Notes: generated by a model not told the origin, from the sequence alone. A DNA stretch of 64,000 nt from a bacterium (GCA_021786315.1 JAJYNN010000002.1:204402-268401); one strand, 5' to 3'. Shown: positions 12,443 to 59,538, counted from the first letter of the stretch. Program-made: numbers and translations.

Positions 12443-12478
12443 AAGGCCACTCCCTCGCCGGATGGCAGGGGTGGCCTT
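12443..12478. repeat. Type-2 palindromic hairpin (aaggccac-N-gtggcctt), with covarying arms relative to the other copies.
   Basis: aaggccactccctcgccggatggcaggggtggcctt; the inner part cctcgccggatggcagg is shared with the 33207 copy. Confidence 0.6.
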
Positions 12479-12489
12479 ATGAAATTCTC

Positions 12490-12526
12490 AAGGTGACGCC
12501 TGCCTTGCGGACGAGGCGTCACCTTT
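12490..12526. repeat. Type-1 palindromic element (caaggtgacgcc...ggcgtcacctt).
   Basis: aaggtgacgcctgccttgcggacgaggcgtcacctt. Confidence 0.8.
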
Positions 12527-12887
12527 TAAGGGCTTAACGGCCTTTGATTCTGAGCGAGTAAAGATAAAGCTTCTAAAAGTTGGCAATGGGAAAGGTGGTA
12601 AAAAAAGGGATAAAAAAGTCCTAAGGCAGGAGTATCCGTCTGCTGCTACTCCTACCCTAGGACCAACTAACTGTTCTTAGTGTAAAGAAAAGTGAAAACC
12701 ATGTCAAGAGGTCGTTCTGTATCAAACTCCCTCAAAACTTTTACCGCATGACCATAAATAGCCTCAAAGTTACCCAAAGCTAACAAAGTCACTTGATCAT
12801 AATATATTTACACTATATCAAAATAGGTAAACTCTGAACCCATTTGATCTTGTGAAAACATGTAGTGAAAACTATCTATCCTTGCAA

Positions 12888-13115
12888 AAGGGCACTCCTT
12901 GGCGCAAGTTAAGGGGTGCCCTTGAGAATTGGAAAGCTAAGAATTTGTTTTGCGTCTTTTTTAGAAAAAGACGCCCAAAAATCGCCCACGGGAACGGTCC
13001 CTAAATTCTACGGCTTGCTGGTCGGGGGAAAGCTGCCCCCTCGATCACGGCTTTGCCGGATCGGCATCCCCCTGACAGCTTCGCCTAGAATTCTTAACGG
13101 GCTTACGTTCCAAGT
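12888..13115 (+). ncRNA. Candidate structured RNA/MITE element, copy A: 5' palindromic hairpin, 'gagaattggaaagctaag', stem-loops with covariation, 3' motif ttaacgggcttacgttcca.
   Basis: About 150 nt are virtually identical to copy B (22676-22980). Motifs are conserved, with compensatory stem changes, relative to copies C (33207-33438) and D (29191-29428). Confidence 0.4.
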
Positions 13116-13278
13116 GGGCCAGGAAGAAAGAGGGAAGAAGAGGTTGTAGGTTTATTCCACTTGCACTAGGTATGGTCAAAGCCGTAAAATTGAGACTAAC
13201 AATGAAGAAGTATCAACCAAACCAGATAAGGATCTACTCGCAAGGCTCGCAGACCCTTGTCTTTGAGGGAGGAGTTAA

Positions 13279-15666
13279 ATGAGTATTGGTAAATATATTC
13301 CCTCAAAGATTGAGCCTAAGTGGCAAAAGAGGTGGGAGGAGAGCAACCTTTATTCCACCGACTTGTCCAAGCCAAACAAGTATTACGTTTTAGCTGAGTT
13401 TACCTACCCTTCCGGCGACCTCCATATGGGCCATTGGTTTACCTTTTCCGGGGCAGATATCTTTGCCCGCTATAAGAGGCTAAACAGCTTCAATGTCTTT
13501 TTCCCTAATGGTTTTGATGCTTTTGGCTTGCCGGCCGAAAACGCTGCCATCAAGCGGGGAATTCACCCACAAGATTGGACTTTAGCAAACATCGAACGGA
13601 TGAAACAGCAGTTTGCCACCATGGGTGCTAGTTTTAGCTTTGATCACGAGGTTATCACCTGCTTACCGGAATATTACAAGTGGAACCAGTGGATTTTTTT
13701 GCAGATGCTCAAGCGGGGTTTGGCCTACAAAGGCAAATATTTATCAAACTGGTGCAGTAAGTGCCAGACTGTGTTGGCTAATGAAGCTGTGGAAGCGGGG
13801 GCCTGCTGGAGATGCGGGACGGAAGTTGTGCAAAAGGAGATTGACCAGTGGTTTTTCAAAATCACCGAGTATGCCGACAGGCTCATTTGGCCGGAAAAGC
13901 CGGATGTTGATTGGCCTAAATCATTGCGTGACGCCCAGAACATTTGGATTGGCAGATCCGCCGGGGCGTTAGTAAAGTTTGATGGGCTGGAAGTGTTTAC
14001 GACGCGTCCGGACACGCTTTTCGGGGCTACCTTTGTTGTTGTCAGTCCCGAACACCCGCTGCTAAAACAACTAACTGAGGCTAATGAGCAACAAAAAGTT
14101 GAGGACTATGTAGCGGCCGCCAAAAAGAAAAGTGAATTGGAGAGAAAAGAGAACAAAGACAAGTCGGGGGTATTTACCGGCTCCTTTGTTAAAAACCCAA
14201 TGACCGGAGAAGAGATTCCGGTTTGGGTGGCTGACTATGTTTTACCGGGGTATGGGACGGGAGCCATTATGGCTGTTCCAGCTCACGACCAACGGGACTT
14301 TGAGTTTGCCAAAAAGTTTGGTTTGGAGATAAAACAAGTCATTAAGGCTGGGGGTCCTGCCGCTCTAACCCAAGCTTATGAAGGAGACGGGGTGCTAATT
14401 AATAGTGGGGAGTACGATGGGTTAAGTATCGAAGAAGCGAAGAAAGTTATAACAGACTTTCTGGCAAGTAAGCGCATTGGTTCGCAGATGATTTATTACC
14501 ACTTGCACGATTGGTCAATTTCCCGGCAAAGGTATTGGGGAACTCCGATCCCGGTTATTTACTGTGAGAAGTGCGGCACTGTGCCTGTTCCGGAAGAGGA
14601 CCTGCCGGTCAAGTTGCCTTATGACGTTGATTATGCGCCTTCCGGCAAGCCGCCTTTGGCCACCAACGAAGATTGGCTGAATGTGAAGTGCCCCAAGTGT
14701 GGAGGGGAAGCCAAAAGGGATGCGGAAACTATGGATACTTTTGTGGACTCTTCCTGGTACTTCTTCCGCTACCTGGATCCTAAGTTCGATATCGCCCCTT
14801 TTGATAAAGAGCTGGCTCAAAAAATTATGCCGGTTGATATTTACTTTGGAGGAGCGGAACACAATTTAGGCCACACCCTCTATTCCCGGTTCTTTACCAA
14901 AATTTTCCATGACTTAGGCTTAACTGATATAGAAGAATATGCTTTGAGACGGATCAATCACGGAATTGTCTTGGGTCCGGATGGCCAGAAGATGAGCAAG
15001 TCCCGGGGGAATGTAGTCAATCCGGATGAAGAGGTGAAAAAATACGGTGCTGACGCAGTGAGGATCCATATGGCCTTCTTTATGCCCTATGAAGGTTCAT
15101 CAGGGCCGTGGATTTCCGAGCGGGTTTGGGGACCATACAGGTTTCTGGAACGGGTTTGGAACTTATTTGATAAGGTAACTGGAGACCAACCGCAAGCGAA
15201 AGACCTCTTAATGATGAATCGGGCAATTAAGAAAGTTGGCCAGGATATTGAAGGGATCAGGTTTAACACCGCTGTGGCGGCCTTAATGGAGTGGTTAAAT
15301 TACTTAAGTGGCAGGGAAAAGGTTAGCCGGGAAGAGTACAAGACTTTCCTGCAGCTTTTGGCACCTTTTGCCCCGCATATGACAGAAGAATTGTGGGAGA
15401 TGATGGGGGAGAAATACTCCATTCACGAGCAACCATGGCCAAAATTTGAGGAGAAGCACTTGGAAGAAGAGGAAGCAACCGTTGCGGTTTCAGTTAACGG
15501 CAAGGTCCGGGACCAGCTGGTGATTGGAAAAGATATAGCAAGTGATAGTAAGGTAGTAGAAAATAAGGCCAAAGAGAGCCAAAAAGTGCAAAAGTTTCTG
15601 GAGGGGAAAGAGATTAAGAAAGTCGTGTATATACCTGTGAAAATAATCAACTTCGTTACGGACTAA
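13279..15666 (+). CDS. leuS: Leucyl-tRNA synthetase (795 aa).
   Basis: Class I aaRS with HMGH motif (GDLHMGHWF) and KMSKS motif (QKMSKSRGN). A GGGAGGAG Shine-Dalgarno sequence sits 7 nt upstream of the ATG. Confidence 0.9.
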   Translation: MSIGKYIPSKIEPKWQKRWEESNLYSTDLSKPNKYYVLAEFTYPSGDLHMGHWFTFSGADIFARYKRLNSFNVFFPNGFDAFGLPAENAAIKRGIHPQDWTLANIERMKQQFATMGASFSFDHEVITCLPEYYKWNQWIFLQMLKRGLAYKGKYLSNWCSKCQTVLANEAVEAGACWRCGTEVVQKEIDQWFFKITEYADRLIWPEKPDVDWPKSLRDAQNIWIGRSAGALVKFDGLEVFTTRPDTLFGATFVVVSPEHPLLKQLTEANEQQKVEDYVAAAKKKSELERKENKDKSGVFTGSFVKNPMTGEEIPVWVADYVLPGYGTGAIMAVPAHDQRDFEFAKKFGLEIKQVIKAGGPAALTQAYEGDGVLINSGEYDGLSIEEAKKVITDFLASKRIGSQMIYYHLHDWSISRQRYWGTPIPVIYCEKCGTVPVPEEDLPVKLPYDVDYAPSGKPPLATNEDWLNVKCPKCGGEAKRDAETMDTFVDSSWYFFRYLDPKFDIAPFDKELAQKIMPVDIYFGGAEHNLGHTLYSRFFTKIFHDLGLTDIEEYALRRINHGIVLGPDGQKMSKSRGNVVNPDEEVKKYGADAVRIHMAFFMPYEGSSGPWISERVWGPYRFLERVWNLFDKVTGDQPQAKDLLMMNRAIKKVGQDIEGIRFNTAVAALMEWLNYLSGREKVSREEYKTFLQLLAPFAPHMTEELWEMMGEKYSIHEQPWPKFEEKHLEEEEATVAVSVNGKVRDQLVIGKDIASDSKVVENKAKESQKVQKFLEGKEIKKVVYIPVKIINFVTD

Positions 15667-15748
15667 AAAAGGTTTCTACTTAGCAATCCGCTATTTTTTC
15701 TGCTAGGCTATTAAAGTCCCAGATTAGGTTGTCGCAGAGCACTTTTAT

Positions 15749-15784
15749 AAGGTGACGCCTTGATGTACATCAAGGCGTCACCTT
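15749..15784. repeat. Type-1 palindromic element (perfect 36-nt palindrome).
   Basis: aaggtgacgccttgatgtacatcaaggcgtcacctt, flanked by ttata...gagaac. Confidence 0.85.
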
Positions 15785-16252: not shown

Positions 16253-16268
16253 TTGTTGCCTGCTTTAT

Positions 16269-16283
16269 AAGGTGACGCCTTGA
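16269..16283. repeat. Solo half-unit of the type-1 element (ttataaGGTGACGCCTTGAgaac), a single arm with no partner.
   Basis: Its flanks (ttataa...gagaac) are the same as those of the full hairpin at 15749; it sits just 5' of comEA. Confidence 0.7.
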
Positions 16284-16903
16284 GAACTACTATTATGGAA
16301 GACCAAAGCGGAGTGGATTCGTTTATTAATAAATACAAACTACCCTTAGGCATGGGGTTGGTGGGGGTGGTTTTGCTCATTGGCGGGATAGTTTCCTCCG
16401 GGATTATCCCCAAGACCTTTGTAAAGTCCACAAAAAGTTCGGCTGCCGCCACTTCCAATTACTCCAAACAGGAAACGGGAACAAAAGTGGATGTTTCGGG
16501 AGCGGTAGCTAAACCCGGAGTGTATACCTTAAACGGCAACTCCCGGGTGGAGGATGCCCTAAAAGCGGCGGGCGGGGTAACTGAATCGGCTGACCCGGTA
16601 TATTTATCCAAAACTATCAATCTTGCACAAAAGGTATCAGACGGGATGAAGATCTATATCCCCAGGGTTAACGAAGCCGGGCCGTCAGCGGCAGTAGCCG
16701 GGGCTTCGGTGGTGCCGGGGAAGCTGGTGGATGTGAACACCGCAACTTTAGATGATTTGGATAAGCTTCCCGGAGTAGGGCCAACGACAGCCCAAAAAAT
16801 TATTGATAACCGGCCGTATGGGGGAATAGAGGAGCTGCTAACCAAAAAGGCCGTTTCCAGAACGGTTTACGAGAAGATCAAAGAACAAATCTCCACTTGG
16901 TAA
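16280..16903 (+). CDS. comEA: Competence protein ComEA (TM anchor, SLBB domain, C-terminal helix-hairpin-helix DNA-binding domain); real start probably the ATG at 16295.
   Basis: VNTATLDDLDKLPGVGPTTAQKIIDNRPYGGIEEL is a canonical ComEA HhH segment. Confidence 0.8.
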   Translation: MRTTIMEDQSGVDSFINKYKLPLGMGLVGVVLLIGGIVSSGIIPKTFVKSTKSSAAATSNYSKQETGTKVDVSGAVAKPGVYTLNGNSRVEDALKAAGGVTESADPVYLSKTINLAQKVSDGMKIYIPRVNEAGPSAAVAGASVVPGKLVDVNTATLDDLDKLPGVGPTTAQKIIDNRPYGGIEELLTKKAVSRTVYEKIKEQISTW

Positions 16904-17037
16904 GAATAATTCTCAATTTACAATTTTCAGTTTTCAAATAATTTTCAAAATCTAAATTTCCAAACAGCTTGAAAATTCGGTCATTGAAAATTCATTCTAA
17001 ATTGGTACTTGGTAATTAAAAATTTTATACTAGATAT

Positions 17038-22675: not shown

Positions 22676-22980
22676 AGGGCACTCCTTGGCGTAAGGCAAG
22701 GGGTTACCCCTTCGGTTTGAGCCCTCAGGGTCGAAGACTTATGAATTGGAAAGGTATGGTTTTTCTTTTGCGTCTTTTTTAAGAACTTGCTCTCAAGTTC
22801 GCAAGACCTTGCGACAGCAAGCTGTCTTAAAAAAAGACGCCCAAAAATCGCCCACGGGAACGGTCCCTAAATTCTACGGCTTGCTGGTCGGGGGAAAGCT
22901 GCCCCCTCGATCACGGCTTTGCCGGATCGGCATCCCCCTGACAGCTTCGCCTAGAATTCTTAACGGGCTTGCGTTCCAGT
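22676..22980 (+). ncRNA. Candidate structured RNA/MITE element, copy B. It is identical to A over about 150 nt but carries an extra about 50-nt hairpin inserted in its first stem-loop.
   Basis: ...aagacgcccaaaaatcgcccacgggaacggtccctaaattctacggcttgctggtcgggggaaagctgccccctcgatcacggctttgccggatcggcatccccctgacagcttcgcctagaattcttaacgggcttgcgttcca. Confidence 0.4.
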
Positions 22981-23007
22981 GGGCTAGGGAAAAAGAGGAC
23001 GGAAAAC

Positions 23008-24291: not shown

Positions 24292-25500
24292 TCAACAGCT
24301 TTCTAACACTTTGAGGGTTTCTCTGGCAGCTTTTTCCCAGGAGAATTTCTTGATTTGGGAAAATCCCTTATTGGAAAGTTCTTTTCGCAGCTTCGGATCG
24401 CTTGTCAGTTTACTGATTCCTTTGCTAATTTCCTCTTCCTGGTAAGGGTTGACGATGATGGCGGCGTTTCCGGCCACTTCCGGACAGCTGGAAGTATTGG
24501 AAGTTAAGACCGGGCAGCCGCAAGCCATGGCTTCCAGGATTGGCAAGCCAAAACCTTCAAACAGGGATGGGTAAAGGAAAGCTAAAGCCCCGGAATACAA
24601 AGCCGGAAGTTCCTCATCTGGAACATATCCTAAAAATTTAACCTGTTTTTCAATGCCTAATTCTTGGGGTAGGGAGTAAATCTCATCTGCCAGCCAGCCT
24701 TTGGAACCAGCCAAAACAAGCTGGAGTTTCTTATAAGGTGACGCCTTGACGTACGTTAAGGCGTCACCTTGAAAACCGGTCGCCCCTTGCTTTATAAATT
24801 TGGCATATGCTTTAATTAACTGTTCCAGGTTTTTTCTGGGTTGGATAGTTCCTACAAACAGGAAATAATTTTGATCTTCTAAGTTATATTTCTTTAGCGT
24901 TTGTCCTAATTGACTGCCCCTTACCGGTTTAAAAAGTTTTTCATTGTAACCCTCGTAAACAACAGTAATTTTATCTGCCGGTATCCCTACCTTATTAATT
25001 AAATCTTCTCTGGTGGACTTGGAAACGGCAATGATATGGGTAGCAGACTTCAATTGCCGGTGAGTCATAAAGTTTAAGTAAAGCCTTTGTTTTAATTGAT
25101 GGGTTCGAGGTAAATATTCCGCTCCCAAATCGTGGACTGTGACCACAGTTTTTAGGCCGGGTTTACGGAAAAGGGGGAGCGTGTGGGCGGGGATGAAAAG
25201 GACATCCAGATCTTTCTCTAAAAATGTTCTTTTCGCCAAGCCATACTGGGTCCAGAGCCTGTGCAAAGGTATGAGATCAGCCTCAAAATTAGCGGCTTCC
25301 GCTATCCCGGACCCGATCCGGGATCTAAATTCCTGGATCCCTGCTTTCGCAGGGACGATCCCGGAAAACGGACTTAAATAAACTTTATATTGATTCCGGT
25401 GGTCAATTTTAGCCAGATGAGAGAGTATCTGGTAGGAATAATTCTCTGTCCCTGTCCTTTTGCCTATAAAAGATCGGGATGCATCGTAGCCAATGATCAT
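24292..25500 (-). CDS. Family 1/4 glycosyltransferase carrying an in-frame palindromic-element insertion.
   Basis: C-terminal GT-B motif FEGFGLPILEAMACGCPV; the hairpin element encodes GFQGDALTYVKASPYK. Confidence 0.8.
   Translation of the reverse strand: MIIGYDASRSFIGKRTGTENYSYQILSHLAKIDHRNQYKVYLSPFSGIVPAKAGIQEFRSRIGSGIAEAANFEADLIPLHRLWTQYGLAKRTFLEKDLDVLFIPAHTLPLFRKPGLKTVVTVHDLGAEYLPRTHQLKQRLYLNFMTHRQLKSATHIIAVSKSTREDLINKVGIPADKITVVYEGYNEKLFKPVRGSQLGQTLKKYNLEDQNYFLFVGTIQPRKNLEQLIKAYAKFIKQGATGFQGDALTYVKASPYKKLQLVLAGSKGWLADEIYSLPQELGIEKQVKFLGYVPDEELPALYSGALAFLYPSLFEGFGLPILEAMACGCPVLTSNTSSCPEVAGNAAIIVNPYQEEEISKGISKLTSDPKLRKELSNKGFSQIKKFSWEKAARETLKVLESC
24735..24770. repeat. Type-1 palindromic element inserted in frame inside the GT4 gene.
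   Basis: aaggtgacgccttgacgtacgttaaggcgtcacctt lies within ORF 24292-25500, and the reading frame is maintained. Confidence 0.85.
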
Positions 25501-25612
25501 AATAATTTCTAATTTTTAATTTACAATTTTTAAATAATATCTAAATGATTAAATGTTTTAAAATCGGAACATTGATAATTTATTTAAAATTTAAAATTTA
25601 TAATTGAAAATT

Positions 25613-26632
25613 TTATCTCTTGCTTACGCTCCTTTTATACAAGTCCAGGTTTTCCAGGGCCATGCCTGTTCCATAGGCCACGCACATCAAGGGGTTCTCG
25701 GCAACATGGCAGGGAACACCGGTGGCCTCGGTCATGAGTTTATCCAGGTTGTTCAGTTGGGAGGTGCCTCCGGAAAAAACAATACCTTTATCGATAATAT
25801 CTGAAGCTAGCTCCGGGGGAGTCTGTTCGAGAACGTTTTTGACCGCAGCCACAATTTTTTGCACTGTTGGTTCAATCATCTCATGGACTTCAGCGGTGGT
25901 AAGCTCAATAGTCCGGGGAAGTCCGGTGATGGCGTCCCGGCCCCGGACAGGCAGGGTTTTATTCTCGCTGGATTTAGGGTTAGTTGCTGAAGCGATCCTG
26001 ATCTTAACCTCTTCGGCCTGGTTTTCCCCGATTATCAGTCCGTATTTCTTTCTGACAGCAGTCTGGATAGCCTCGTCAACCTTATTGCCGCCAACTCTGG
26101 CTGAGTTGTGGACGACCACACCTCCCAGACAGATCACCGCCGCCTCGGTGGTGCCCCCGCCGATATCCACGATCATGTTTCCGGAAGGGTTGGCAATTGG
26201 AATCCGGGCGCCGATGGCTGCAGCCAATGGTTCATCAATCAGATAGGCGGTTTTGGCGCCGGCAGAGAGGGTAGCGTCAAGCACGGCCCGGCGTTCCACC
26301 GAGGTCACTCCGGCAGGGACACAAATCATCACCTCCGGCTTAAAAAGGTGGGAGTGGCCGCAAACCTTATCGATAAAATAACGGAGCATGGCTTCAGTGA
26401 TGACGTAATCGGCGATAACCCCTTCGCGGAGCGGCCGGGAGGCGGTGATATTACCCGGAGTGCGTCCCAGCATCTCTTTAGCTTCGTTTCCGACAGCCAA
26501 TACCCGGTTATCATCAGTGGAAACAGCCACCACAGTCGGCTCATTTAAGACAATTCCTTCGCCGCCCAAATAAACCAGGGAGTTGGCAGTGCCTAAGTCA
26601 ATGCCGATGCGTTTGCCTAAATTAAACATCAT
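25613..26632 (-). CDS. mreB: Actin-like MreB/Mbl paralog 1.
   Basis: IGIDLGTANSLVY...; sugar-kinase/actin fold motifs throughout. Confidence 0.85.
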   Translation of the reverse strand: MMFNLGKRIGIDLGTANSLVYLGGEGIVLNEPTVVAVSTDDNRVLAVGNEAKEMLGRTPGNITASRPLREGVIADYVITEAMLRYFIDKVCGHSHLFKPEVMICVPAGVTSVERRAVLDATLSAGAKTAYLIDEPLAAAIGARIPIANPSGNMIVDIGGGTTEAAVICLGGVVVHNSARVGGNKVDEAIQTAVRKKYGLIIGENQAEEVKIRIASATNPKSSENKTLPVRGRDAITGLPRTIELTTAEVHEMIEPTVQKIVAAVKNVLEQTPPELASDIIDKGIVFSGGTSQLNNLDKLMTEATGVPCHVAENPLMCVAYGTGMALENLDLYKRSVSKR

Positions 26633-26741
26633 CTAAATTTTACTTCCGGGTTAACCCGATCACAAGACCTATTAAATATATAGAAATAGAACAAGAAGTA
26701 AAAGTTGAGAGTTATAAGCAGAGCTTGCGGCTGTTGGCCTA

Positions 26742-26778
26742 AAGGTGACGCCTTGCCTTACGACAAGGCGTCACCTTG
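26742..26778. repeat. Type-1 palindromic element.
   Basis: aaggtgacgccttgccttacgacaaggcgtcacctt. Confidence 0.85.
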
Positions 26779-26803
26779 AGAAAAACATGGTACACTATGA
26801 GAA

Positions 26804-27550
26804 ATGGAAGCTACATTAAGATCTGTAAACATTTTTGGAGTCCGGGTAGACAAAGTGAATATGGAGGAATCTGTGGGTATAGTGGAAGGTTGGTTAGAAG
26901 GAAAAGAAAAACACTATATTGTAACCCCGAATCCCGAATTTATAATGGCTGCACAAAAGGACGAGGAGTTTAAAAAGGTTCTAAATAATGCCGACTTAGC
27001 AGTTCCTGACGGAGTGGGGTTAAAACTGGCAAGTGATATAGAAAGCAATACTCCCGGAGTTTATCTTTTGGAGGGGCTTTGTAGGGAGGTTTCAAAAAAG
27101 GGCTTTACAGTAGGCTTTTTGGGTGGCAGGAATGGGGTAGCAAAGAAAGCCGCCGAGTGCTTACAGAAAAAGTATCCCGGACTAAAAGTGAGTATTGCCG
27201 ATGATGGCGGGAATATTGATTCCGACGGTGAATCGCTCGGGGTCTTGCCACCTAGCGATTTTCCAAAAACCGACATACTATTTGTCGCGTATGGCCAAAT
27301 TAAGCAGGAAAAATGGATTTATAGGAATTTGGAAAAGATTCCGGTTAAAGTAGCCATGGGAGTTGGGGGATCATTTGATGAGATTTCCGGTCGGGTGTTG
27401 CGGGTTCCCCGTTGGGTGCACAACTTGGGCTTAAAATGGTTGGTCAGGCTCATCCTTCAGCCTTGGAGAATCAAAAGACAGCTAGCGCTTATTAAATTTA
27501 TATGGATGGTGATAAGCGCTAAATTTTCAATGATCAATAACCAATTTTAA
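26804..27550 (+). CDS. WecB/TagA/CpsF-family (GT26) glycosyltransferase.
   Basis: VNIFGVRVD...YIVTPNPEF...DLAVPDGVG is a typical GT26 N-terminus. Confidence 0.75.
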   Translation: MEATLRSVNIFGVRVDKVNMEESVGIVEGWLEGKEKHYIVTPNPEFIMAAQKDEEFKKVLNNADLAVPDGVGLKLASDIESNTPGVYLLEGLCREVSKKGFTVGFLGGRNGVAKKAAECLQKKYPGLKVSIADDGGNIDSDGESLGVLPPSDFPKTDILFVAYGQIKQEKWIYRNLEKIPVKVAMGVGGSFDEISGRVLRVPRWVHNLGLKWLVRLILQPWRIKRQLALIKFIWMVISAKFSMINNQF

Positions 27551-27658
27551 AATAAACCTCAATGATTAATGTTCAAAATTTAAACATTCAGAAATTAGAA
27601 ATTCATTGAGACTTGAAAATTGTAAATTGAAAATTTAATTTGTGCTACACTGGAAAAG

Positions 27659-28588
27659 ATGAATGTTTACGTTGGTGTTGATTGCGGAGCCACCAATCTC
27701 CGTGTAGGCGTGGCTGACGAAAGCGGAAGGGTTATTGCCTCCTCAAAAGTCCCATCTCCTTTAAGATCCCATCCGTTAAAGTTTGCCGAAAAGATAAAAG
27801 AGCAGGTTGATTTACTTCTGGAGGGTAAAGAGCATCGGGTTTTGGCTATTGGAGTAGGTATGCCCGGACCCATTGATCTTAAGAAAGGTGTGATCCTGCC
27901 CTCCGCAAACTTAGGGAACCTGGAACCGATTGATTTAACCCGCCAATTTGAAACGGTATTCGGTGTTCCGGCATATTTTGATAGAGATACCAACCTGGCT
28001 TTAATTGGCGAAGTTTGGCGGGGGGCGGCAGTAAATAAAAAAGAAGTGGTGATGTTGACTTTAGGGTCCGGAGTTGGTGGAGCAGTGATGGTGGATGGCA
28101 AGATTGATCGCGGAGCAACCGGTAAAGGTGGGGAGATGGGTCATATAATTTTATGGATGGAAGTTCCCCCAAAACAAGAATTAATCAAGCGTCACTTTTG
28201 TGTAGGAGGCAAGGATTGGGATCCGGCAACTATGGTTCTGACCCATCCTCAGGTATCTTTGAAGAAAGGCCAGATCACTTTCCATTGCGGGTTGGGACAC
28301 GAAAATTGTCTGGAAGCCTTAATTAATTCCGCTAAAAGTGTGGATGAGTTGGGTACCTATCTTGGGTATGGGATAGCCAATCTGGTTGATATTTTTAATC
28401 CTCAGGCAGTGATTATTGGTGGAGGTAAGTTGAATATCGGTGACTTCCTGCCTCAGGCGGTTTGTGTGATGAAGGAAGTAGGGATGAAGCCGGCAGTTGA
28501 CGAGGTGGAAGTCTCTTATGCTAAGCTAAAGGAACTAAGCGGTGTTTACGGCGGAATCAAAATCGCAATAGAAGGCACGTATGATTGA
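27659..28588 (+). CDS. ROK-family sugar kinase (glucokinase-like).
   Basis: VGVDCGATNLRVGV...GVGMPGPID...LALIGE. Confidence 0.75.
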   Translation: MNVYVGVDCGATNLRVGVADESGRVIASSKVPSPLRSHPLKFAEKIKEQVDLLLEGKEHRVLAIGVGMPGPIDLKKGVILPSANLGNLEPIDLTRQFETVFGVPAYFDRDTNLALIGEVWRGAAVNKKEVVMLTLGSGVGGAVMVDGKIDRGATGKGGEMGHIILWMEVPPKQELIKRHFCVGGKDWDPATMVLTHPQVSLKKGQITFHCGLGHENCLEALINSAKSVDELGTYLGYGIANLVDIFNPQAVIIGGGKLNIGDFLPQAVCVMKEVGMKPAVDEVEVSYAKLKELSGVYGGIKIAIEGTYD

Positions 28589-29099: not shown

Positions 29100-29190
29100 T
29101 TTAACGTTTTTGGCTCTGCAAATACCCTAATCTACCTGCACTAGCAAAACTTCCACCTAATTGCCAATTTTCTGTCTTTTGTTCTTAAAG

Positions 29191-29428
29191 AAGGTGACCT
29201 CCTTGACGTTAGGCAAGGGGTCACCTTAAGAATTGAAAAGCTAATGTTTTTTTGCAACTTTGGTGGCAAAGTTGCGCAAAGCCACTTGCAGTGAAAGTCG
29301 ACCTAAAACCTTCATCAGTTGTCTAGCGGGAACTTTACCCTTCGGAAATTCGGCTACTTCGTAGCGTCAGTTTCCGCTTTCCCTGCTGCCAACTGACTTG
29401 GTTTTTTAACGGTCTTTGTTTCAATGCA
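29191..29428 (+). ncRNA. Candidate structured RNA/MITE element, copy D (the most divergent).
   Basis: aaggtgacctccttgacgttaggcaaggggtcacctt + aagaattgaaaagctaat + ttgcaactttggtggcaaagttgcgcaa ... ctagcgggaactttaccc ... ttttttaacggtctttgtttcaatgc. Confidence 0.35.
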
Positions 29429-29467
29429 AGGGAAGATGAAACGGATAAACAATTGGAAGAAAATATC

Positions 29468-29683: not shown

Positions 29684-29737
29684 ACTGAATCTTTTCTGTA
29701 ACTTTTTAGATGACCAAACATATCAAAGTCATCGCAA

Positions 29738-30405: not shown

Positions 30406-30479
30406 ATTGCTTTGTCATTCCGGACTTGATCCGAAATCTAATTTATTTAGACCCCTGATCAAGTCAGGGATGACGTACT

Positions 30480-33206: not shown

Positions 33207-33438
33207 AGGTGACTGCCTCGCCGGATGGCAGGCGTCACCTTAAGAACTGGAAAGCTAAGGTTATGTTCACGCTTTTGGCCGCAAAAGCGTGGGAAAACTC
33301 TGCTCGCAGAAAGTCGCCCTAAACCTCGTCATTTTCTAGTCGGGGGCTCACCCCCTCGGAAATTCACTGGTTGAGAGTTCAGTTTCCGGTTCCCCCTGAC
33401 AGAAAACTCCTCGGTTTTTAACGGGCTTGCGTTCCAGT
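33207..33438 (+). ncRNA. Candidate structured RNA/MITE element, copy C.
   Basis: aaggtgactgcctcgccggatggcaggcgtcacctt + aagaactggaaagctaag + cacgcttttggccgcaaaagcgtg ... ctagtcgggggctcaccccctcgg ... ccccctgacag ... ttaacgggcttgcgttccagt. Confidence 0.4.
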
Positions 33439-33501
33439 CAAAGAAAAATAGTATTTGGTTTCAAAGCGAGCAAAATAGAATTAAAAGGAGTATTAGAAAA
33501 A

Positions 33502-42559: not shown

Positions 42560-42594
42560 CCTGCTTTTAGCATATCATAATATAAATATAAAAG

Positions 42595-43350: not shown

Positions 43351-43365
43351 GCAGCAAAAAGCCCC

Positions 43366-43390
43366 TTCGGGTAGACCTCGGGGGCTTGTT
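43366..43390. terminator. Hairpin GCCCC-N15-GGGGC flanked by A and T tracts; candidate bidirectional terminator between convergent genes.
   Basis: aaaaagccccttcgggtagacctcgggggcttgttt. Confidence 0.45.
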
Positions 43391-43440
43391 TGCACTCCAT
43401 ATTCAGTTATTGCGGAAAGCTCTCTTTGGAAGACGGGAAA

Positions 43441-44040: not shown

Positions 44041-44055
44041 TGCTCCTTCTCCTTC

Positions 44056-44301
44056 CTAAACCTTCAGTTGGATAACCTGTTTCAAGGTCTCGAAGTGGTT
44101 GGTACACAACTGGCCAACTGCAGCCATCTCGCTTTCGGCATAGTCGGCCGCGTCCGTGTCCACAAAATGGGCCTGATACCATTCTTCGTCAATCCGGTCA
44201 ACCATGATCAACCCATCCATGTGCAGTCTCGCCTGGTTGATCTGTAATGGGGTAGGGTAAGGTGCATCCGTGAGCTTTACTTGGACTATTAGCTGTGCCA
44301 T
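44056..44301 (-). CDS. Island ORF P2: hypothetical 81-aa protein, paralog of P5.
   Basis: ...HFVDTDAADYAESEMAAVGQLCTNHFETL versus P5 ...SFTGTDCGDYGDTAPEAVRALCENHTSTL, about 39% identity over 36 aa by hand alignment. Confidence 0.4.
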   Translation of the reverse strand: MAQLIVQVKLTDAPYPTPLQINQARLHMDGLIMVDRIDEEWYQAHFVDTDAADYAESEMAAVGQLCTNHFETLKQVIQLKV

Positions 44302-44349
44302 GAGTTTCTCTCCTTTTTCGCTATACAGGATTTGGATGTGCCTATTGGG

Positions 44350-44730
44350 CTAACCCGGTGATTTCTTGTTCATCCAGGGAAGACCGGGCAGAATAGCAGA
44401 ACAACGGACGATGACACTATTGTGAATTCGACTACCGGGGGGATTTGGTTGATAGGGTATCATTGCCCGATTCAGAGCATCCTCAATTGCGTGGGGAAGC
44501 TCTATCCCTAACGGATCCATCCTGAGGTCTAGTTCCGGAACATCGGCAATTACTCGTAATGCGCGGCTTTTAGGATATTGATAATCAGTGGGCACCCACT
44601 GGATTTCAACATCGAAGCCGTGTTCGAACTTGCCTCTCTCCAGAGCACGCCTAAGCGTTTTGGAGATTTCTTCTTTCTTAACATCATCGATGAGTGTACC
44701 TTGGTCTCGGAAAATGGTGATAGTGATCAA
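44350..44730 (-). CDS. Island ORF P3: hypothetical 126-aa protein.
   Basis: Its N-terminus MITITIFRDQG resembles P5 GIITITREEP. Confidence 0.4.
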   Translation of the reverse strand: MITITIFRDQGTLIDDVKKEEISKTLRRALERGKFEHGFDVEIQWVPTDYQYPKSRALRVIADVPELDLRMDPLGIELPHAIEDALNRAMIPYQPNPPGSRIHNSVIVRCSAILPGLPWMNKKSPG

Positions 44731-44748
44731 ATTGACCCTCCTTTTAGG

Positions 44749-44982
44749 TTATTTCTGAGTTACCCGGCCGTTGTAGCGACACCCGCAATATATACCACGA
44801 GTTTCACCAGTACCGTGACAAACCGGACAATTAGGATCTGTCCGGAATGTGGGCATGCCCCTGCCTGCTCGCAGGTGCAACTCCTCTTGTCGGATAACTT
44901 CTGCTCCTTTGCCCCAATCTTTTGGTGGCTGTTCTGGTCCTGGCACCTTTTTCACCTCATACGTAATTTTGGTTTCCTTCAA
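44749..44982 (-). CDS. Island ORF P4: 77-aa zinc-ribbon protein.
   Basis: CPVCHGTGETRGIYCGCRYNG. Confidence 0.4.
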   Translation of the reverse strand: MKETKITYEVKKVPGPEQPPKDWGKGAEVIRQEELHLRAGRGMPTFRTDPNCPVCHGTGETRGIYCGCRYNGRVTQK

Positions 44983-45091
44983 GCATGGCTAGAGAAGTGA
45001 GTTGGTAATTTCCTCCATCTTAGCCTCTAGTATTGGCTCCGAGTGGAATTGGTTGGGTTTGGTACAAGGATTGTAACAATGAGCACTTCAA

Positions 45092-45295
45092 CTACTCCCT
45101 TCGGGCTTCTCGCACCATGATTTCGATTAGCGTGCTGGTGTGATTTTCACACAACGCGCGGACTGCTTCTGGAGCAGTATCTCCGTAATCTCCGCAGTCA
45201 GTTCCGGTAAATGATGCTTCAAAGCAAGGCTCTTCCCGGGTAATCGTGATGATTCCTGAGACGAACAATCTCGTCTCTCCGACCGGCCATTCCAT
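45092..45295 (-). CDS. Island ORF P5: hypothetical 67-aa protein, paralog of P2.
   Basis: See P2. Confidence 0.4.
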   Translation of the reverse strand: MEWPVGETRLFVSGIITITREEPCFEASFTGTDCGDYGDTAPEAVRALCENHTSTLIEIMVREARRE

Positions 45296-45375
45296 AGTAT
45301 CCTCCTCGAATCTTTGTAGCCTTGGTTTTACTTGATATCCTTGCTAAATAGAAGATCTGTAGAGTCCAGCAATGG

Positions 45376-45651
45376 TTAAGATAATAACCGAACCCAGCCG
45401 ATGATTTGGACACTGGAGCCCACAAGTACAGCGGTTGGGGGATACCAACCAGGGGCTCTTCCTTCTCGAGTTGCCCACATCCAGCGGTCGATCCCCGCAA
45501 GGAATACAGCAGTTCCTGCAATGATGGTGAGTACGTAGACTAGCCAGAGCATGTTTTTCTCCTTCCTATTGAAATAACTTTCCGCAAAACTGTTAAAGTG
45601 CCTACCAATTAAGAAATAAGAAGATTCAAAGCCCAAGGGAATAAGCGTCAA
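45376..45651 (-). CDS. Island ORF P6: small membrane protein (91 aa).
   Basis: Hydrophobic segment LWLVYVLTIIAGTAVFLAGI. Confidence 0.35.
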   Translation of the reverse strand: MTLIPLGFESSYFLIGRHFNSFAESYFNRKEKNMLWLVYVLTIIAGTAVFLAGIDRWMWATREGRAPGWYPPTAVLVGSSVQIIGWVRLLS

Positions 45652-45732
45652 ACACCCATATCTTGAACCTTACCTCTCCCGATTCAAATTGATGGGTGTA
45701 TTTTAAAGGAAACGGGGAAGAAAATCAAAAAA

Positions 45733-45990
45733 CTATGAGCCTTGTTTTTTCTTTTCCCCTTCCAGGGTTCTGGTTCCGGGAGGTTCCTTTTGGCCAATGG
45801 TGGTTCGGGGGCCGCTGTGTTTTACCCTGCCTTTTTCATCAATGTAAGTTGGAAATGCTGTGGTCTCGGCTCCGCTGATCGCTTCATCTCCGGCGTTATA
45901 GTCTTGCGGTGGGGTCCCCACCTGATGGGTCCGGGCGGCGCTGTATTGTTTTAGATTCTCCTCCGGCCTTTTCTTTTTGTTTTTCATCAA
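45733..45990 (-). CDS. Island ORF P7: small basic/charged hypothetical protein.
   Basis: ORF only. Confidence 0.3.
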   Translation of the reverse strand: MMKNKKKRPEENLKQYSAARTHQVGTPPQDYNAGDEAISGAETTAFPTYIDEKGRVKHSGPRTTIGQKEPPGTRTLEGEKKKQGS

Positions 45991-46082
45991 GTTAACCTTA
46001 AGGGTTTTAGTTAAGAGGAAGATAAGGTGCGGGTAATAACTTGGTATAACTTGGGAATTGTAGGACTGAACCTGGGAAAATG

Positions 46083-55400: not shown

Positions 55401-56255
55401 ATTCTTAATAGGAAAATCAGGGTAACCCCGAAGAAAATCTGCTAACTTTGCAGGGTTTTTGCCTTCCATTTGGACCAATTCACCCGGGAAAAATTTTACA
55501 ATTTTTCCATTCCATTTGGTCCAGGCATTGGGCCAGGGATAATAGGCCCGGATCATCCGGTCCAATTTTTCCGGAGTTGGGGGATTCCCAATATCGAAAT
55601 ACCCGTCCTCTTTATTAATAATTTTTGTAAAAGTTGCCTCTTCTTCATTTTGGGGTTTTAAATCCACTTTCCCTGCAATAAACTGGGGAATAATATCAAC
55701 CAAAAGGGGAATTGTTTCCTGAGTCATTTTTGTGTTCAAAGATTCAAAAGTATCTGTATTTGATAAGCTAATCTCCTTTGTTGCAAGGACTGGACCGTGA
55801 TCTAGTTTGATATCCATTTGCATGATGGAGGTACCGGAGGTTTTATCACCGTTTAAAATGGCTGCCTGGATGGGAGAAGCCCCGCGGTACTTAGGTAAAA
55901 GTGAATAATGGATATTTATAACTCCAAATTTAGGAATATCTAAAACATTTTGGGGAATAATTTTCCCATAAGCCGCCACAATAAATAAATCAGCATTGAG
56001 CTTTTTTAGCTCCAGAGCAGCCTCATTGTCCAGTCTCTCAGGCTTGTGCAAGGTGACGCCTTGCGCCGCAAGGGGACGCCTTGCGTTCGTGGCGACGGCG
56101 GAGGGAGTTAATATTTGTTTACGGCCAATCTTTTGGTCGGGTCCCGTAACTATCCCAACAACCTGAAAATTTTCCTCCAAAGCTTCTAAAATGGGAACCA
56201 CGAAGGCTGGAGTTCCAAAAAACACGATTTTGATAGACTTATCCATAATTTTCAA
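55392..56255 (-). CDS. fmt: Methionyl-tRNA formyltransferase containing a direct repeat of the palindrome unit in frame.
   Basis: IVFFGTP ... NIHYSLLPKYRGASPIQ. The segment ATNARRPLAAQGVTLHKP is encoded by caaggtgacgccttgcgccgcaaggggacgccttg. Confidence 0.85.
   Translation of the reverse strand: MKIMDKSIKIVFFGTPAFVVPILEALEENFQVVGIVTGPDQKIGRKQILTPSAVATNARRPLAAQGVTLHKPERLDNEAALELKKLNADLFIVAAYGKIIPQNVLDIPKFGVINIHYSLLPKYRGASPIQAAILNGDKTSGTSIMQMDIKLDHGPVLATKEISLSNTDTFESLNTKMTQETIPLLVDIIPQFIAGKVDLKPQNEEEATFTKIINKEDGYFDIGNPPTPEKLDRMIRAYYPWPNAWTKWNGKIVKFFPGELVQMEGKNPAKLADFLRGYPDFPIKNLN
56049..56083. repeat. Two direct copies of the 15-nt unit CAAGG(T/G)GACGCCTTG inside fmt.
   Basis: caaggtgacgccttg cgccg caaggggacgccttg. 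Confidence 0.7.
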
Positions 56256-56917: not shown

Positions 56918-57045
56918 GCTGGGTAAGTCGCCGCATAGGGCTACTTGGCTTCGCCAAGATCCTGTGTGGCATCTTTCTTGAGTTGACTGAGACGCCACAT
57001 AAGTCTACTTTGACTTCGTCAAAGATCTTGTGTGGAGGTTTCTCT
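56918..57045. repeat. Two tandem hairpin-containing repeats of about 45 nt (cttggcttcgccaagatcctgtgtgg / ctttgacttcgtcaaagatcttgtgtgg), related to the hairpin at 21663.
   Basis: Direct visual comparison; shared core ttgacttcgtcaaa..gatcttg. Confidence 0.55.
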
Positions 57046-57294
57046 GAGTTGTTTTAACCTCCACATGAACACTTTGGCCTTGGATTTGGCTGAGGTATAG
57101 CCTTTGGCATATGTTAGGGCCTGGTCCAAAAGGCCCCGGCTATATTGTTTAGCCAGCTTGATATAGAGGGAATAATGTTTGGTGTCACCTAATTCTTCCG
57201 CTAAATAAACTCCGTAAACCTGGAACTCCTGGGATAAATTCTTGGGGCGGTCAGGGTGTTTTTGCTGGTCGATGATCTGGCCTATACTCTTCAT
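57019..57294 (-). CDS. Hypothetical small protein (91 aa).
   Basis: ORF only. Confidence 0.3.
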   Translation of the reverse strand: MKSIGQIIDQQKHPDRPKNLSQEFQVYGVYLAEELGDTKHYSLYIKLAKQYSRGLLDQALTYAKGYTSAKSKAKVFMWRLKQLRETSTQDL

Positions 57295-57323
57295 GTTTTT
57301 TCAAGGTGTCACCTTATGAATTG

Positions 57324-59495
57324 CTATTTATTTTCCCATTCTTTAATCTTGCTCAAGGCATCAGGATCGTTCGGAATGAATTTTAAGATTCCCTGCATGG
57401 CCTCTATAGCCTTATCATATTGCTTATCCGAAGCATAGATGAGCCCCAAAGAATAATAGGCCTCTTTATAATTTGGCTTCAATTTAATTGTCCTTTCCAT
57501 TTCAGCTATGGCTTCCTGGTTTTTGCCCATTTGGCTCAAAATTATGGCTTTATTGTAAGTCAATTTGGGATCTGTGGGAGCCAGAAGGATAGCCAAATCC
57601 AAAGCATCCAGGGTTTTTTGGGTGTAAGCCTTGTCTATTGTCGCAAGCATGTAATAGGTTCTGACGGCGCTTCTGACATAAGAAACATTCCTGGGGCTAT
57701 CCTTTAAGGCTAGATTGGTTTCGAATACCGCTTCTTCTTTAAGGAGCGCAGAACGGGTAGCATCCTCACTTTCCAGTGCCGCGGCTGCCCCGGCCGCCGC
57801 ATAGCCCAATTCACTGTGGTAATAAGGCTCACCGGGGTTTAATGAGACCGCCGCAATCAACTCGTTGTATGCCTTTCCGGGGTTGGTGTCGGAATACTTT
57901 TGGCTGGTGGCAAAGTCGGTATCGGCTAGGTAGTAACGTCCTAAAGTGATAAGTATTAATCCTGCCATAATTCCTACAACCCAGGAGGCGAATTTGGGAT
58001 AAAAGGGTCTTTTGTAGAGATTTAAGAATATGGATTGGAGCGAAGCTCGCGCTGACGCACTAGGATTTAGGAGCTTAGGAAAAGCGAGAGGTTTTGTTGA
58101 ATCGGTGGCGGTAAAGGCAATGGCTGGAAAAAGATAGAAAAAGAGGGCAATGATTACCACAGAAAAGCCAAAAATATTTTGGATGAGGTAGGAAATGTAG
58201 GAAGCAAGAAGTGCCGGGATAAGTAGTATGTAGTATGTAGTATGGGTATTTTTGTTTTTCCCCTTAATACTTAATACATATCCCTTAATACACCATATTA
58301 CGAATGTAATAATGATGGCCATGTAACTGGTAAAGCCAATTATTCCGGTTGTTGCTAGGTAATTAAGGAATTCATTGTGGGCTTTGTTATAAAGAAAATC
58401 CCATTCAGAGACTAGGTTGTGTTCAACCGGCCTGAAGTTGTAGTAGGAATAGGCAAAGGTTTCAACTCCGGAGCCAAAAATTGGGTAATGTTTAAAGATA
58501 TCAATTGCCCCTTTCCAGACAATCAGCCTGATGGTTCCCGATTCGGTGCCGCCGTTTTCCAGCTGGGTTCCGGAGGGTTTGGGGGCATTGATCACTGAAG
58601 CCAAAGATGGCCGGGAAGCCGGGGCAAATTTGGACAACAGTTTAAAGTCGGTTAAAGCAGAGCCAAAGATTAAATTGACACCAATAATGATACCTAAAAT
58701 TGTCATCCCTGGCTTGACCAGGGACCCAGCTAATTTGGATCCCTGTTTGCGCAGGAATGATAGGAAATAAGTGAGTCCTACGATAGCCAACCCCCCCAAA
58801 AGTCCTAGTGTGGCCCCCCGGGAATAGGTAAAGGTGAAGGCGAGGTAAAAAAGAATTAAGAATGTAGAATTAAGAATCATGAATGATCTTTTGGTGGAAG
58901 AAAGAAGGAAATAGATGGCGGGAAAGATTAACATTGCCAAATAGGCTGCCAGCCAGTTGGGCTGGCCTAACGTGGCAAAGACCCTAGCCTGGACATCCTG
59001 CACCCAGCAGGCATCATTGAAAGATCCGGTTAAGAATAAACAGGAAGGGGAGGCGCCAAAGTGTTCTGGGATGGCATATAAAGCTACAACTACCCCGCCG
59101 TAAACTGCCCATTTCAGGAAACTTAAAACCTGTCCCTTGGTAAAGTTGGAAACTAGCGCGTAGTACAAAAGGATGTAGGAAATAGTAGATAAAAGCCCGC
59201 CATTTGACCTGGAATAATAACCCCAAATGGAGGTATGGCGGTCAATGGAAAAAATGGTGGAAAGAATATTGGCCAGAAGGAAAAGCATTAAAGGAATATC
59301 CAAAGGCGTGCCCTGGAGGTTAAATTTTTTGGTTTGGATCATTTTGATAAGCCAGGAGGCGGTAATAATGATGGTGAGGAAATAAACCAGCATCATCTTG
59401 TTGTATTCAAAAAGTTCAAAGTTCCACGGAGCCCAAACAAGCGGGGTCAGGAAAAATAATATATAGAAGGAGTAAACAAGAATTGTATTAAGCAT
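57324..59495 (-). CDS. O-antigen ligase-like polytopic membrane protein with C-terminal TPR repeats.
   Basis: Wzy_C-like hydrophobic core plus C-terminal TPR-like repeats (AYYSLGLIYASDKQYDKAIEAMQ...). Confidence 0.6.
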   Translation of the reverse strand: MLNTILVYSFYILFFLTPLVWAPWNFELFEYNKMMLVYFLTIIITASWLIKMIQTKKFNLQGTPLDIPLMLFLLANILSTIFSIDRHTSIWGYYSRSNGGLLSTISYILLYYALVSNFTKGQVLSFLKWAVYGGVVVALYAIPEHFGASPSCLFLTGSFNDACWVQDVQARVFATLGQPNWLAAYLAMLIFPAIYFLLSSTKRSFMILNSTFLILFYLAFTFTYSRGATLGLLGGLAIVGLTYFLSFLRKQGSKLAGSLVKPGMTILGIIIGVNLIFGSALTDFKLLSKFAPASRPSLASVINAPKPSGTQLENGGTESGTIRLIVWKGAIDIFKHYPIFGSGVETFAYSYYNFRPVEHNLVSEWDFLYNKAHNEFLNYLATTGIIGFTSYMAIIITFVIWCIKGYVLSIKGKNKNTHTTYYILLIPALLASYISYLIQNIFGFSVVIIALFFYLFPAIAFTATDSTKPLAFPKLLNPSASARASLQSIFLNLYKRPFYPKFASWVVGIMAGLILITLGRYYLADTDFATSQKYSDTNPGKAYNELIAAVSLNPGEPYYHSELGYAAAGAAAALESEDATRSALLKEEAVFETNLALKDSPRNVSYVRSAVRTYYMLATIDKAYTQKTLDALDLAILLAPTDPKLTYNKAIILSQMGKNQEAIAEMERTIKLKPNYKEAYYSLGLIYASDKQYDKAIEAMQGILKFIPNDPDALSKIKEWENK

Positions 59496-59502
59496 TTTTT
59501 AC

Positions 59503-59538
59503 AAGGTGACGCCTTGACGTACGTTAAGGCGTCACCTT
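59503..59538. repeat. Type-1 palindromic element.
   Basis: aaggtgacgccttgacgtacgttaaggcgtcacctt, identical to the intragenic GT4 copy. Confidence 0.85.

Follow-up and report, generated by a model that had tools for sequence, protein, structure and literature searches.

How does a short palindrome come to lie about once every 4 kb in a bacterial genome of a group whose genomes are among the smallest and most streamlined, where such repeats are unexpected baggage? The question is raised by a 64-kb stretch of DNA (GCA_021786315.1 JAJYNN010000002.1:204402-268401), here called the window, in which a hairpin of 36 nucleotides (nt) recurs between and within genes; the sequence examined amounts to about 68 kb of this genome. 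The host is an uncultivated relative of Candidatus Daviesbacteria (Microgenomates; Patescibacteria, the candidate phyla radiation or CPR), the nearest relatives, which carry this name, having a protein identity of 60-66% and sharing gene order with the window. On balance we regard the hairpins as probably a lineage-expanded family of short palindromic repeats of the kind represented by the repetitive extragenic palindromes (REP) and the Rickettsia palindromic elements (RPE).

The sequence-only reading of the window had described a dispersed repeat family built from a near-palindromic unit, and the family is real. The 15-mer CAAGGTGACGCCTTG is matched 17 times with at most two mismatches where 0.10 matches are expected, and none of 100 dinucleotide-preserving shuffles reaches 17. 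These matches resolve into 15 loci, with 11 full hairpins and four to five truncated or decayed copies, which are spaced from 0.05 to 23 kb apart. An independent assembly in the ENA matches the window at 99.98%, so the hairpins are not artefacts. The architecture of a full copy is U-N8-U', or AAGG-N4-C-N-CCTTG-N8-CAAGG-N-G-N4-CCTT, where U stands for the unit and U' for its reverse complement, the two being different at three of 15 positions. A scan for AAGG...CCTT stems gives a length of exactly 36 nt, AAGG to CCTT, for the copies at 11588, 12443, 12490, 12888, 15749, 24735, 26742 and 59503; the only full copy of another size is the one at 29191, with 37 nt. The spacer of 6 to 15 nt proposed earlier has to be corrected to a constant 8 nt, with the same exception. 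The oriented alignment has the consensus TTA-N-AAGGTGACGCCTTG-N8-CAAGGCGTCACCTT-GAGAAYTG, and its conserved flanks are asymmetric, TTA or TAT on the 5' side and RWGAAYTG on the 3' side. Within the stem, AAGG/CCTT at the base and CCTTG/CAAGG at the top are conserved, while positions 5-9 read TGACG, GCACT, CCACT, TGACT/C or CGTCA and the partner arm changes to match.

A covariance model trained on 11 oriented copies recovers these copies, gives weak hits at 22667, 57295, 16261, 56042 and 51431, and finds no further member in the window; a further solo unit is found some 850 bp past the right edge (L010:1797). All positions named in the sequence-only reading hold, for the full copies (12490, 15749, 24735, 26742 and 59503), the solo unit (16268-16282), the direct pair (56049/56069) and the arm variants (12443, 12888, 22676, 29191, 33207 and 38957). 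Its list had overlooked a perfect copy at 11585-11626, immediately left of the range it gave, and a collapsed one at 57302-57316, and while the covarying variants are hairpins as stated, it was missed that four of them (12888, 22676, 29191 and 33207) head a longer module, to which we return below.

The paired changes in the two arms, which had been taken as a sign of selection on hairpin structure, stand well above the controls. In a helix of 14 pairs, 94% of the cells of the alignment hold a standard pair and five of the 14 pairs have changed on both sides; the covariation score was reached by none of 500 shuffles, and control structures slid by one to three columns have only 26-51% of their cells paired. 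Folded as DNA, the canonical copies have z-scores from -7.8 to -11.5. The two strands are unequal: the oriented one, which carries GAGAA, folds more stably in ten of 12 copies, for instance with RNA folding energies of -28.5 against -17.3 kcal/mol for the 12888 copy and -26.4 against -15.4 kcal/mol for the 38957 copy, and DNA parameters give the same preference. T.G wobbles occur on the oriented strand where the opposite strand has C.A mismatches, and GCAA or GTAA tetraloops are on the oriented strand in the copies at 12888, 22676, 38957 and 12490; the 26742 copy is exceptional in having GTAA on the other strand. It is thus partly shown that the active or selected form is a single strand, either RNA of a transcript or a single-stranded DNA (ssDNA) intermediate, and not the duplex.

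The window is about 86% coding, and 11 of the 15 loci are found in the 14% that is non-coding (binomial p = 3e-7), the other four lying inside open reading frames (ORFs), which bears out the earlier description of the family as intergenic, intragenic and upstream of genes. The intergenic copies are scattered over 3', 5' and divergent spacers; one of them (15749) is 83 nt 3' of the stop codon of the leucyl-tRNA synthetase (LeuRS) gene and 16 nt ahead of the next ORF, and those at 12443 and 12490 form a tail-to-tail doublet with 11 nt between them. The + strand is the G-rich strand over the entire window, and 11 of the 13 copies that can be oriented are on it (p = 0.02, in a small sample); both minus-strand copies adjoin minus-strand genes. 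So few copies do not allow a bias of replication to be told from one of transcription, and most of them, moreover, lie in spacers between divergent or convergent genes, in which each orientation is sense to one of the two genes.

Two copies demonstrate how similar members of the family can be in unrelated contexts: the one inside a GT4 glycosyltransferase gene (24735) and an intergenic one (59503) are identical in 36 of 36 nt, a G.T pair included. The solo unit at 16268 equals a full copy minus the segment between its two CCTTG repeats, with both flanks kept, and is read as the product of a deletion between these direct repeats; the same deletion would explain the copy at 57302 and the solo unit past the right edge. 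The repeats have also left their mark on assemblies. Four short-read contigs of the same organism (L001, L008, L009 and L053, Logan contigs of SRR13201255) end within hairpins or modules, at window positions 13075, 15778, 22823, 24741, 29282 and 59510: L001 extends to 22823, L008 from 24741 to 29282, L009 begins at 59510, and L053, by arithmetic, spans about 13075-15778 and ends inside the 15749 copy. De Bruijn assemblies break at multi-copy sequence, and thus the repeats limit assembly contiguity, fragmenting metagenome assemblies at predictable points.

The four copies inside genes, those of the GT4 glycosyltransferase, Fmt, a penicillin-binding protein (PBP) and a giant surface protein, all leave the ORF open. 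This is expected rather than remarkable, because 36 nt make 12 codons and a stop (AGG TGA) arises in one of the three frames only. In the glycosyltransferase the copy encodes QGDALTYVKASP between a helix and a strand, at a loop where the homologues in the PDB have a gap. According to an alignment of 20 orthologues this site and a second one near the N-terminus are hypervariable hot spots of insertion; in the glycosyltransferase of Daviesbacteria (in the window at 24292-25500, minus strand) one follows the motif YLRP and the other LIxAYAxFL. The peptides encoded by palindromes at these hot spots differ from species to species (QGDAL, QGQTL, QGPAL, VIPAKAGIQ, RQDPE/Q, GAPLS..RTSNG), and the proteins have 355-447 amino acids (aa). 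Hot spot 1 of the window (25231-25344) contains other inverted repeats, GGGATCC..GATCCC and CCCGGA..TCCGGG, which encode AGIQEFRSRIGSG and have no sequence relation to the 36-nt family. In Fmt the unit pair adds only four residues compared with the solved structures, and one unit covers the conserved HGIPV segment; as only 3 of 15 positions distinguish U from U' and the pair is two to three substitutions from an ordinary copy, the pair may be read as an ordinary copy that has decayed. The giant protein is encoded by a 3291-aa ORF (2365-12240, minus strand) with two N-terminal MerR/HTH_17 domains, a transmembrane segment, long repeats of the GIGTTSP type and a C-terminal domain like K1-lyase/Peptidase_S74; orthologues occur in the Daviesbacteria sequences L006 and L052. 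A DNA-binding N-terminus is odd on a fibre-like surface protein.

The Daviesbacteria sequences available for comparison were L003 (a locus of a metagenome-assembled genome), L004, L006, L051 and L052. The covariance model finds no member of the family in about 64 kb of L003, L004 and L006, and the 15-mer gives no hits there as a dispersed motif. The hairpin of the 26742 type is absent from the orthologous MreB/WecG spacer in L004, L006 and L052. Related palindromes with a CCTTG..CAAGG core do occur in other Daviesbacteria, mostly inside genes and in the same genes as in the window. Hot spot 1 of the glycosyltransferase carries AAAGCGTCGCC...GGCGACGCTTT in L052, CCTTGCAAGG in L004 and L006, and in L051 CAAGGGGACGCCTTG, which is identical to the window unit at 56069. 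The giant-protein orthologue of L052 carries AAAGCAACACCTTGG-GTAC-CCAAGGTGTTGCTTT and in addition a decayed AAGGGTGCC...GCCCTT followed by GAGAATTG; the decayed hairpin occupies the linker position of the window copy at 11585-11626, immediately ahead of SEPEIITI. These in-gene palindromes indicate that the CCTTG..CAAGG type of element predates this lineage; what is distinctive here is its expansion into intergenic DNA. The positions shared between species may reflect either retention or recurrent insertion. Outside this group, the 28-base palindrome has no hit among 185,579 species genomes, and viral contigs contain no hairpin and 40 single hits of the 15-mer, consistent with chance. The sole JGI metagenome hit of a 22-base pattern (L002) is an ordinary T-run terminator; its contig is unrelated, and the hit was put down to chance.

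A separate matter is the longer module. At 12888, 22676, 29191 and 33207 the family hairpin opens a recurring module of 250-330 nt as its first hairpin (H1); next come the linker GAGAATTGGAAAGCTAAG, a hairpin that varies in sequence (H2) and a nested rod about 150 nt long. The Daviesbacteria locus L003 has two copies that lack H1, placed back to back (16636-16815 on the + strand and 16803-16990 on the - strand), and one of these two shows an identity of about 93% with the window stretch 33262-33320, over H2 and the first small hairpin in the rod region (P1), although proteins are only 60-66% identical. RNAalifold predicts 46 pairs for the module, 26 of which are kept through changes on both sides, for example GCCC/GGGC, GGGC/GCCC, GACC/GGTC, AATTCTA/TAGAATT, AAAACC/GGTTTT and AAACC/GGTTT. 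Five of the six module copies start 5-92 nt past a same-strand stop codon. The module has no match in Rfam 15 at E-values up to 10, three window copies and L003 giving only unrelated matches with E > 0.2; L004, L006, L010, L051 and L052 contain no copy that a model of the rod detects, and neither a motif search of viral contigs nor blastn gave a phage match for the module. A retron or group II intron can be dismissed, no reverse transcriptase being present. An integron attC site was rejected as well: attC sites have a length of about 57-141 nt; on inspection the R''/R' core sites are not found in inverted order in the module, and the 36-nt hairpin is too short. Like ERIC, Correia and BOX elements, the module is a repeat of 100-300 nt with long imperfect hairpins, situated in transcribed regions 3' of genes and differing in copy number among relatives. 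It is unlike them in that the ends of the rod differ between copies yet stay complementary, in that neither a consensus terminal inverted repeat nor a target duplication was seen, and in that one sub-region is conserved to about 93% between genomes with 60-66% protein identity. It is a candidate for a new structured RNA or DNA element in a lineage which has almost no characterized non-coding RNAs.

The proposed likeness of the hairpins to REP or RPE is the best fit to these observations, as far as lineage expansion, identical copies, in-frame insertions and deletion derivatives are concerned; it fails for the GTAG/CGTC tag, and no REP-associated tyrosine transposase (RAYT) is encoded in the window. 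We envisage that copies would be added at new sites, chiefly between genes, and that those landing in frame would persist in tolerant protein loops, 12 codons being inserted and two of the three frames being open. Decay would proceed through point mutations and through slippage from one internal CCTTG repeat to the other, the source of solo units, while compensatory changes keep the hairpin, with its better fold on one strand, for what would be a single-stranded active form. The mover might be a trans-acting enzyme which reads the folded hairpin with its CCTTG/CAAGG top, such as an HUH/Y1 enzyme of the RAYT or IS200/IS605 type; alternatively, copying could occur by template switching. Transcribed copies probably act also as RNA hairpins at the ends of messengers.

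Several observations weigh against a spreading repeat of this kind. Pfam scans of the 64 kb reveal no gene for mobility, be it a transposase, a RAYT, TnpB or another, and the oriented alignment shows no target-site duplication at any copy. The GTAG/CGTC tag is absent, CGTC occurring only as paired bases in the 3' arm. With the nearest relatives at 60-66% protein identity there is no pair of close strains with an empty and a filled site, and only about 68 kb of the genome has been seen. The canonical arms hardly vary whereas the 8-nt centres do, which fits selection on a specific sequence at least as well as the neutral decay of a selfish element. Finally, that two species have a family hairpin at one and the same place in the linker of the giant protein could mean long-term retention in preference to repeated insertion.

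Several other explanations have to be considered. That the hairpins are RNA signals selected by the host, i.e. stem-loops in the untranslated regions (UTRs) of the sense strand serving in end protection, processing or termination without a U-tract, is plausible and would be compatible with a selfish origin, although as the whole account we think it rather unlikely. G.U wobbles and GNRA tetraloops are found on the strand carrying GAGAA, the arms are strongly conserved around variable centres, several copies lie 5-92 nt past stops or 13-77 nt ahead of starts of same-strand genes, and the long modules follow same-strand stops directly in five of six cases. A copy in a divergent or convergent spacer is, however, always sense to some gene, and of the five informative copies two (24735 and 57302) are antisense; orthologous spacers of the relatives are without copies, so that conserved regulatory elements they are not, and copies occur inside ORFs too. 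The scan for terminators between 12000 and 31900 flagged none of the hairpins, whose 3' flank is GAGAA with no U-tract, the only long T run being at 33207 on the opposite strand, whereas ordinary terminators exist elsewhere in the window, e.g. at 29805-29822. Lacking a U-tract, the hairpins do not qualify as intrinsic terminators. A wider possibility, which we hold to be doubtful, is that hairpins and rod modules together form an undescribed RNA (or ssDNA) system of the sense strand throughout Daviesbacteria. It is suggested by the palindromes that several species carry at the same gene positions, with the core kept and the outer stems replaced, and by the module sub-region with its 93% identity against 60-66% for proteins; if true it would imply a conserved trans-acting partner, and palindromic cassettes of 12 codons would be a regular source of variation in protein loops in reduced genomes. 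The narrower idea that the hairpins are merely parts of a non-coding RNA family of 250-nt modules, with the stand-alone copies as its debris, is very improbable. Four hairpins are indeed the 5' hairpin of a module, and the shared flank RWGAAYTG is also the beginning of the linker, but seven canonical copies have no linker past 8 nt, no H2 and no rod, and both module copies in L003 are without H1; hairpin and rod are therefore separable.

The sequence-only reading had offered the 15-nt unit as the site of a dimeric DNA-binding protein, which as duplex DNA would bind two dimers of a global regulator or nucleoid organizer per element. The unit is nearly palindromic (CAAGG-N5-CCTTG), its inverted, everted, direct and solo arrangements all occur, 23 bp from centre to centre are about two helical turns, canonical arms hardly vary, and genes with HTH_17/MerR domains are near some copies. 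This alternative has lost ground and now seems improbable, since complementary changes in both arms keep the hairpin but alter the half-site, the two strands are non-equivalent, and many copies are 3' of genes or in ORFs, away from promoters. The everted and direct forms are only two to three substitutions from the canonical one and both are in coding sequence, and the small HTH_17 gene is kept in relatives free of the repeat. A sigma-70 promoter scan picks up none of the hairpins; ccTTGAGA was considered as a -35-like element and rejected on inspection, being without a matching -10 at proper spacing. The remaining candidate is a DNA uptake sequence (DUS) or uptake signal sequence (USS) for competence, with inverted pairs as in Neisseria. 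The density of about one copy per 4 kb, the copies in coding regions and the frequent inverted pairs are reminiscent of the DUS of Neisseria and the USS of Haemophilus, in which a short over-represented motif is often found as an inverted pair after genes. The window encodes ComEA and ComEC, with a solo unit upstream of comEA, and natural competence is documented in Patescibacteria (PMC10633639). What is repeated is nevertheless no free 10-12-mer but the palindrome as a whole, 36 nt with constant spacing and conserved flanks, and the single unit has not emerged as the selected entity; one receptor would not recognize the covarying variants, 11 of 13 copies are on the + strand, and the 15-mer is not dispersed in the relatives. 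The literature searched reports neither uptake sequences nor REP-like repeats for Patescibacteria, and we know of no uptake receptor for this phylum. We consider this the least probable of the explanations weighed.

Returning to a repeat of the REP or RPE kind, it should be noted that the family functions like REP or RPE and yet is not filed as either. Imperfect palindromes of 20-40 bp in many dispersed copies are what characterizes REP, and this is what is found here; REP and their doublets (REPIN) are likewise dense and mainly intergenic, have covarying sub-families, occasional inverted doublets (here 12443/12490) and occasional in-gene copies, and are likely to be active as single-stranded hairpins. 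REP are placed mostly downstream of ORFs; the intergenic loci here are distributed over spacers of all three kinds. The large REP super-families are defined by the GTAG/CGTC tag (PMC3733652), and as the tag is absent the present family is not placed among them: its flanks are TTA... and ...GAGAAYTG without an unpaired GTAG/CGTC. REP are mobilized by RAYT transposases, whose genes they flank; no RAYT is in the sequence examined here. A quarter of the loci are in ORFs, and while REP are elements of Proteobacteria the host here is one of the Patescibacteria, with at most about 1 Mb of genome. RPE resemble it in lying in frame within genes, where they add a peptide in a tolerated loop and leave the protein intact, and in occurring between genes too. 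They have a length of about 100-150 bp, compared with 36 nt or 12 codons here (the comparison is by description, not by sequence), and the same positions, i.e. the two glycosyltransferase hot spots and the giant-protein linker, hold different palindromes in different species, which sets the present family apart from RPE. In TIGR arrays, which occur in Patescibacteria, the unit likewise measures 36 nt, and its edge and centre are conserved while its arms vary; the arrays are tandem, stand beside a tas gene with a Nop domain and contain box C/D motifs (PMC12045711). The hairpins are dispersed singly and mostly identical, the window has no tandem array, and Pfam scans detect no Nop domain in it, which rules out TIGR-Tas. 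A MITE, or miniature transposable element with inverted repeats, is ruled out as well, the whole element being one hairpin with no flanking duplication and no parent insertion sequence (IS) in the window; the cyanobacterial repeat HIP1 is absent from the window.

With the hairpin family a known phenomenon is thus met in a new host and with an element of smaller size; the family is not a new kind of system and does not overturn current understanding. Short palindromic DNA can, it appears, proliferate in such small genomes and add 12-residue segments to proteins such as Fmt, a PBP or a glycosyltransferase. The family further gives a handle on a hairpin-moving enzyme in a phylum for which no RAYT-REP system is described in the literature searched. 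It is moderately interesting for its host and its in-frame copies, and the module deserves a look of its own. All copies are presented in Table 1.

Table 1. Palindromic repeats and long modules in the 64-kb window (the ComEA start is taken from the gene call on L007)
Feature	Position	Strand	Remarks
Perfect palindrome, 17-bp arms, 8-nt centre	11585..11626	unoriented	Everted CAAGGCGTCACCTTG-N8-CAAGGTGACGCCTTG (U'-N8-U); in frame within the 3291-aa ORF, encodes EARRHLDVRQGDALL; linker past two MerR/HTH_17 domains
Variant hairpin AAGGCCACT.../...GGGGTGGCCTT	12443..12478	+	T.G wobble at stem position 9
Canonical-arm hairpin (12 bp), 12-nt top	12490..12525	-	GCAA loop on oriented (minus) strand
Variant hairpin AAGGGCACT.../...GGGGTGCCCTT	12888..12923	+	GCAA tetraloop, G.U pairs on + strand only; H1 of module 12888-13133
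Module copy 1, remainder: linker GAGAATTGGAAAGCTAAG, H2, rod	12924..13133	+	96.5% identical to 22835-23006
Canonical copy, perfect 36-nt palindrome	15749..15784	+	DNA fold z = -11.5
Solo unit with both family flanks TATAAGGTGACGCCTTGAGAAC	16268..16282	+	13 nt ahead of ComEA ATG
12888-type variant, insertion of about 30 nt in 3' arm	22676..22712	+	8 nt 3' of sortase stop; H1 of module 22676-23006
Module copy 2, remainder, enlarged H2	22713..23006	+	
Canonical copy inside minus-strand GT4 gene	24735..24770	+	36/36 nt identical to 59503; encodes QGDALTYVKASP
Canonical copy, divergent MreB/WecG spacer	26742..26777	+	27 nt ahead of WecG ATG
37-nt variant AAGGTGACCT.../...GGGGTCACCTT	29191..29227	+	H1 of module 29191-29440; 92 nt 3' of cupin/GPI stop
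Module copy 3, remainder	29228..29440	+	
Variant TCGCCGGATGGCAGG, top same as 12443	33207..33242	+	5 nt 3' of stop of LPG-synthase-like gene; H1 of module 33207-33455
Module copy 4, remainder	33243..33455	+	H2 + P1 about 93% identical to L003 copy
12888-type variant with GCAA loop	38959..38996	-	In N-terminal extension of PBP1 ORF, possibly its 5' UTR
Two direct-order units, 5 nt apart	56049..56083	unoriented	Inside fmt (ARRPLAAQGVTL)
Collapsed 13-nt palindrome AAGGTGTCACCTT with family 3' flank ATGAATTG	57302..57316	+	Between two minus-strand genes
Canonical copy, divergent spacer	59503..59538	+	8 nt from Wzy/TPR gene start, 77 nt from second MreB start

Pfam scans of the window identify genes for LeuRS, ComEA, ComEC, ArgRS, a sortase, two MreB and two class A PBPs, and the window further contains those for L1, L10, L11, L7/L12, NusG, Fmt, Def, TGT and the 3291-aa protein. 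In an Rfam 15 scan of the window only five tRNAs reach the gathering threshold. The 5' arm of the hairpin, AAGGTGA, is like a Shine-Dalgarno sequence and stands 3-5 nt ahead of in-frame TTG codons (16280 and 11589), which could mislead gene callers; AAGGTGA/TCACCTT resembles a Shine-Dalgarno/anti-Shine-Dalgarno pair, and there is no 16S gene in the window. The small HTH_17/MerR-type gene mentioned above (29465-29684, minus strand, 71 aa) adjoins the cupin/GPI gene, and as this pairing is kept in L004, L006 and L052 the gene is a resident one, outside the repeat.

Three further places in the window may be mentioned. Between the genes for L10 and L7/L12 there is an imperfect palindrome of 61 nt (30414-30474, GTCATTCCGGACTTGATC...GATCAAGTCAGGGATGAC), present in one copy in the window. 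A cluster consisting of A+T only (39273-39332), in which inverted and direct repeats of AAATTTTAAAAT overlap, is found immediately 3' of a glycosyl-hydrolase gene and ahead of the PBP ORF. Beside tRNA-Trp a region of about 3.5 kb (42560-46080) has a GC skew near zero and contains short ORFs only, without Pfam matches.

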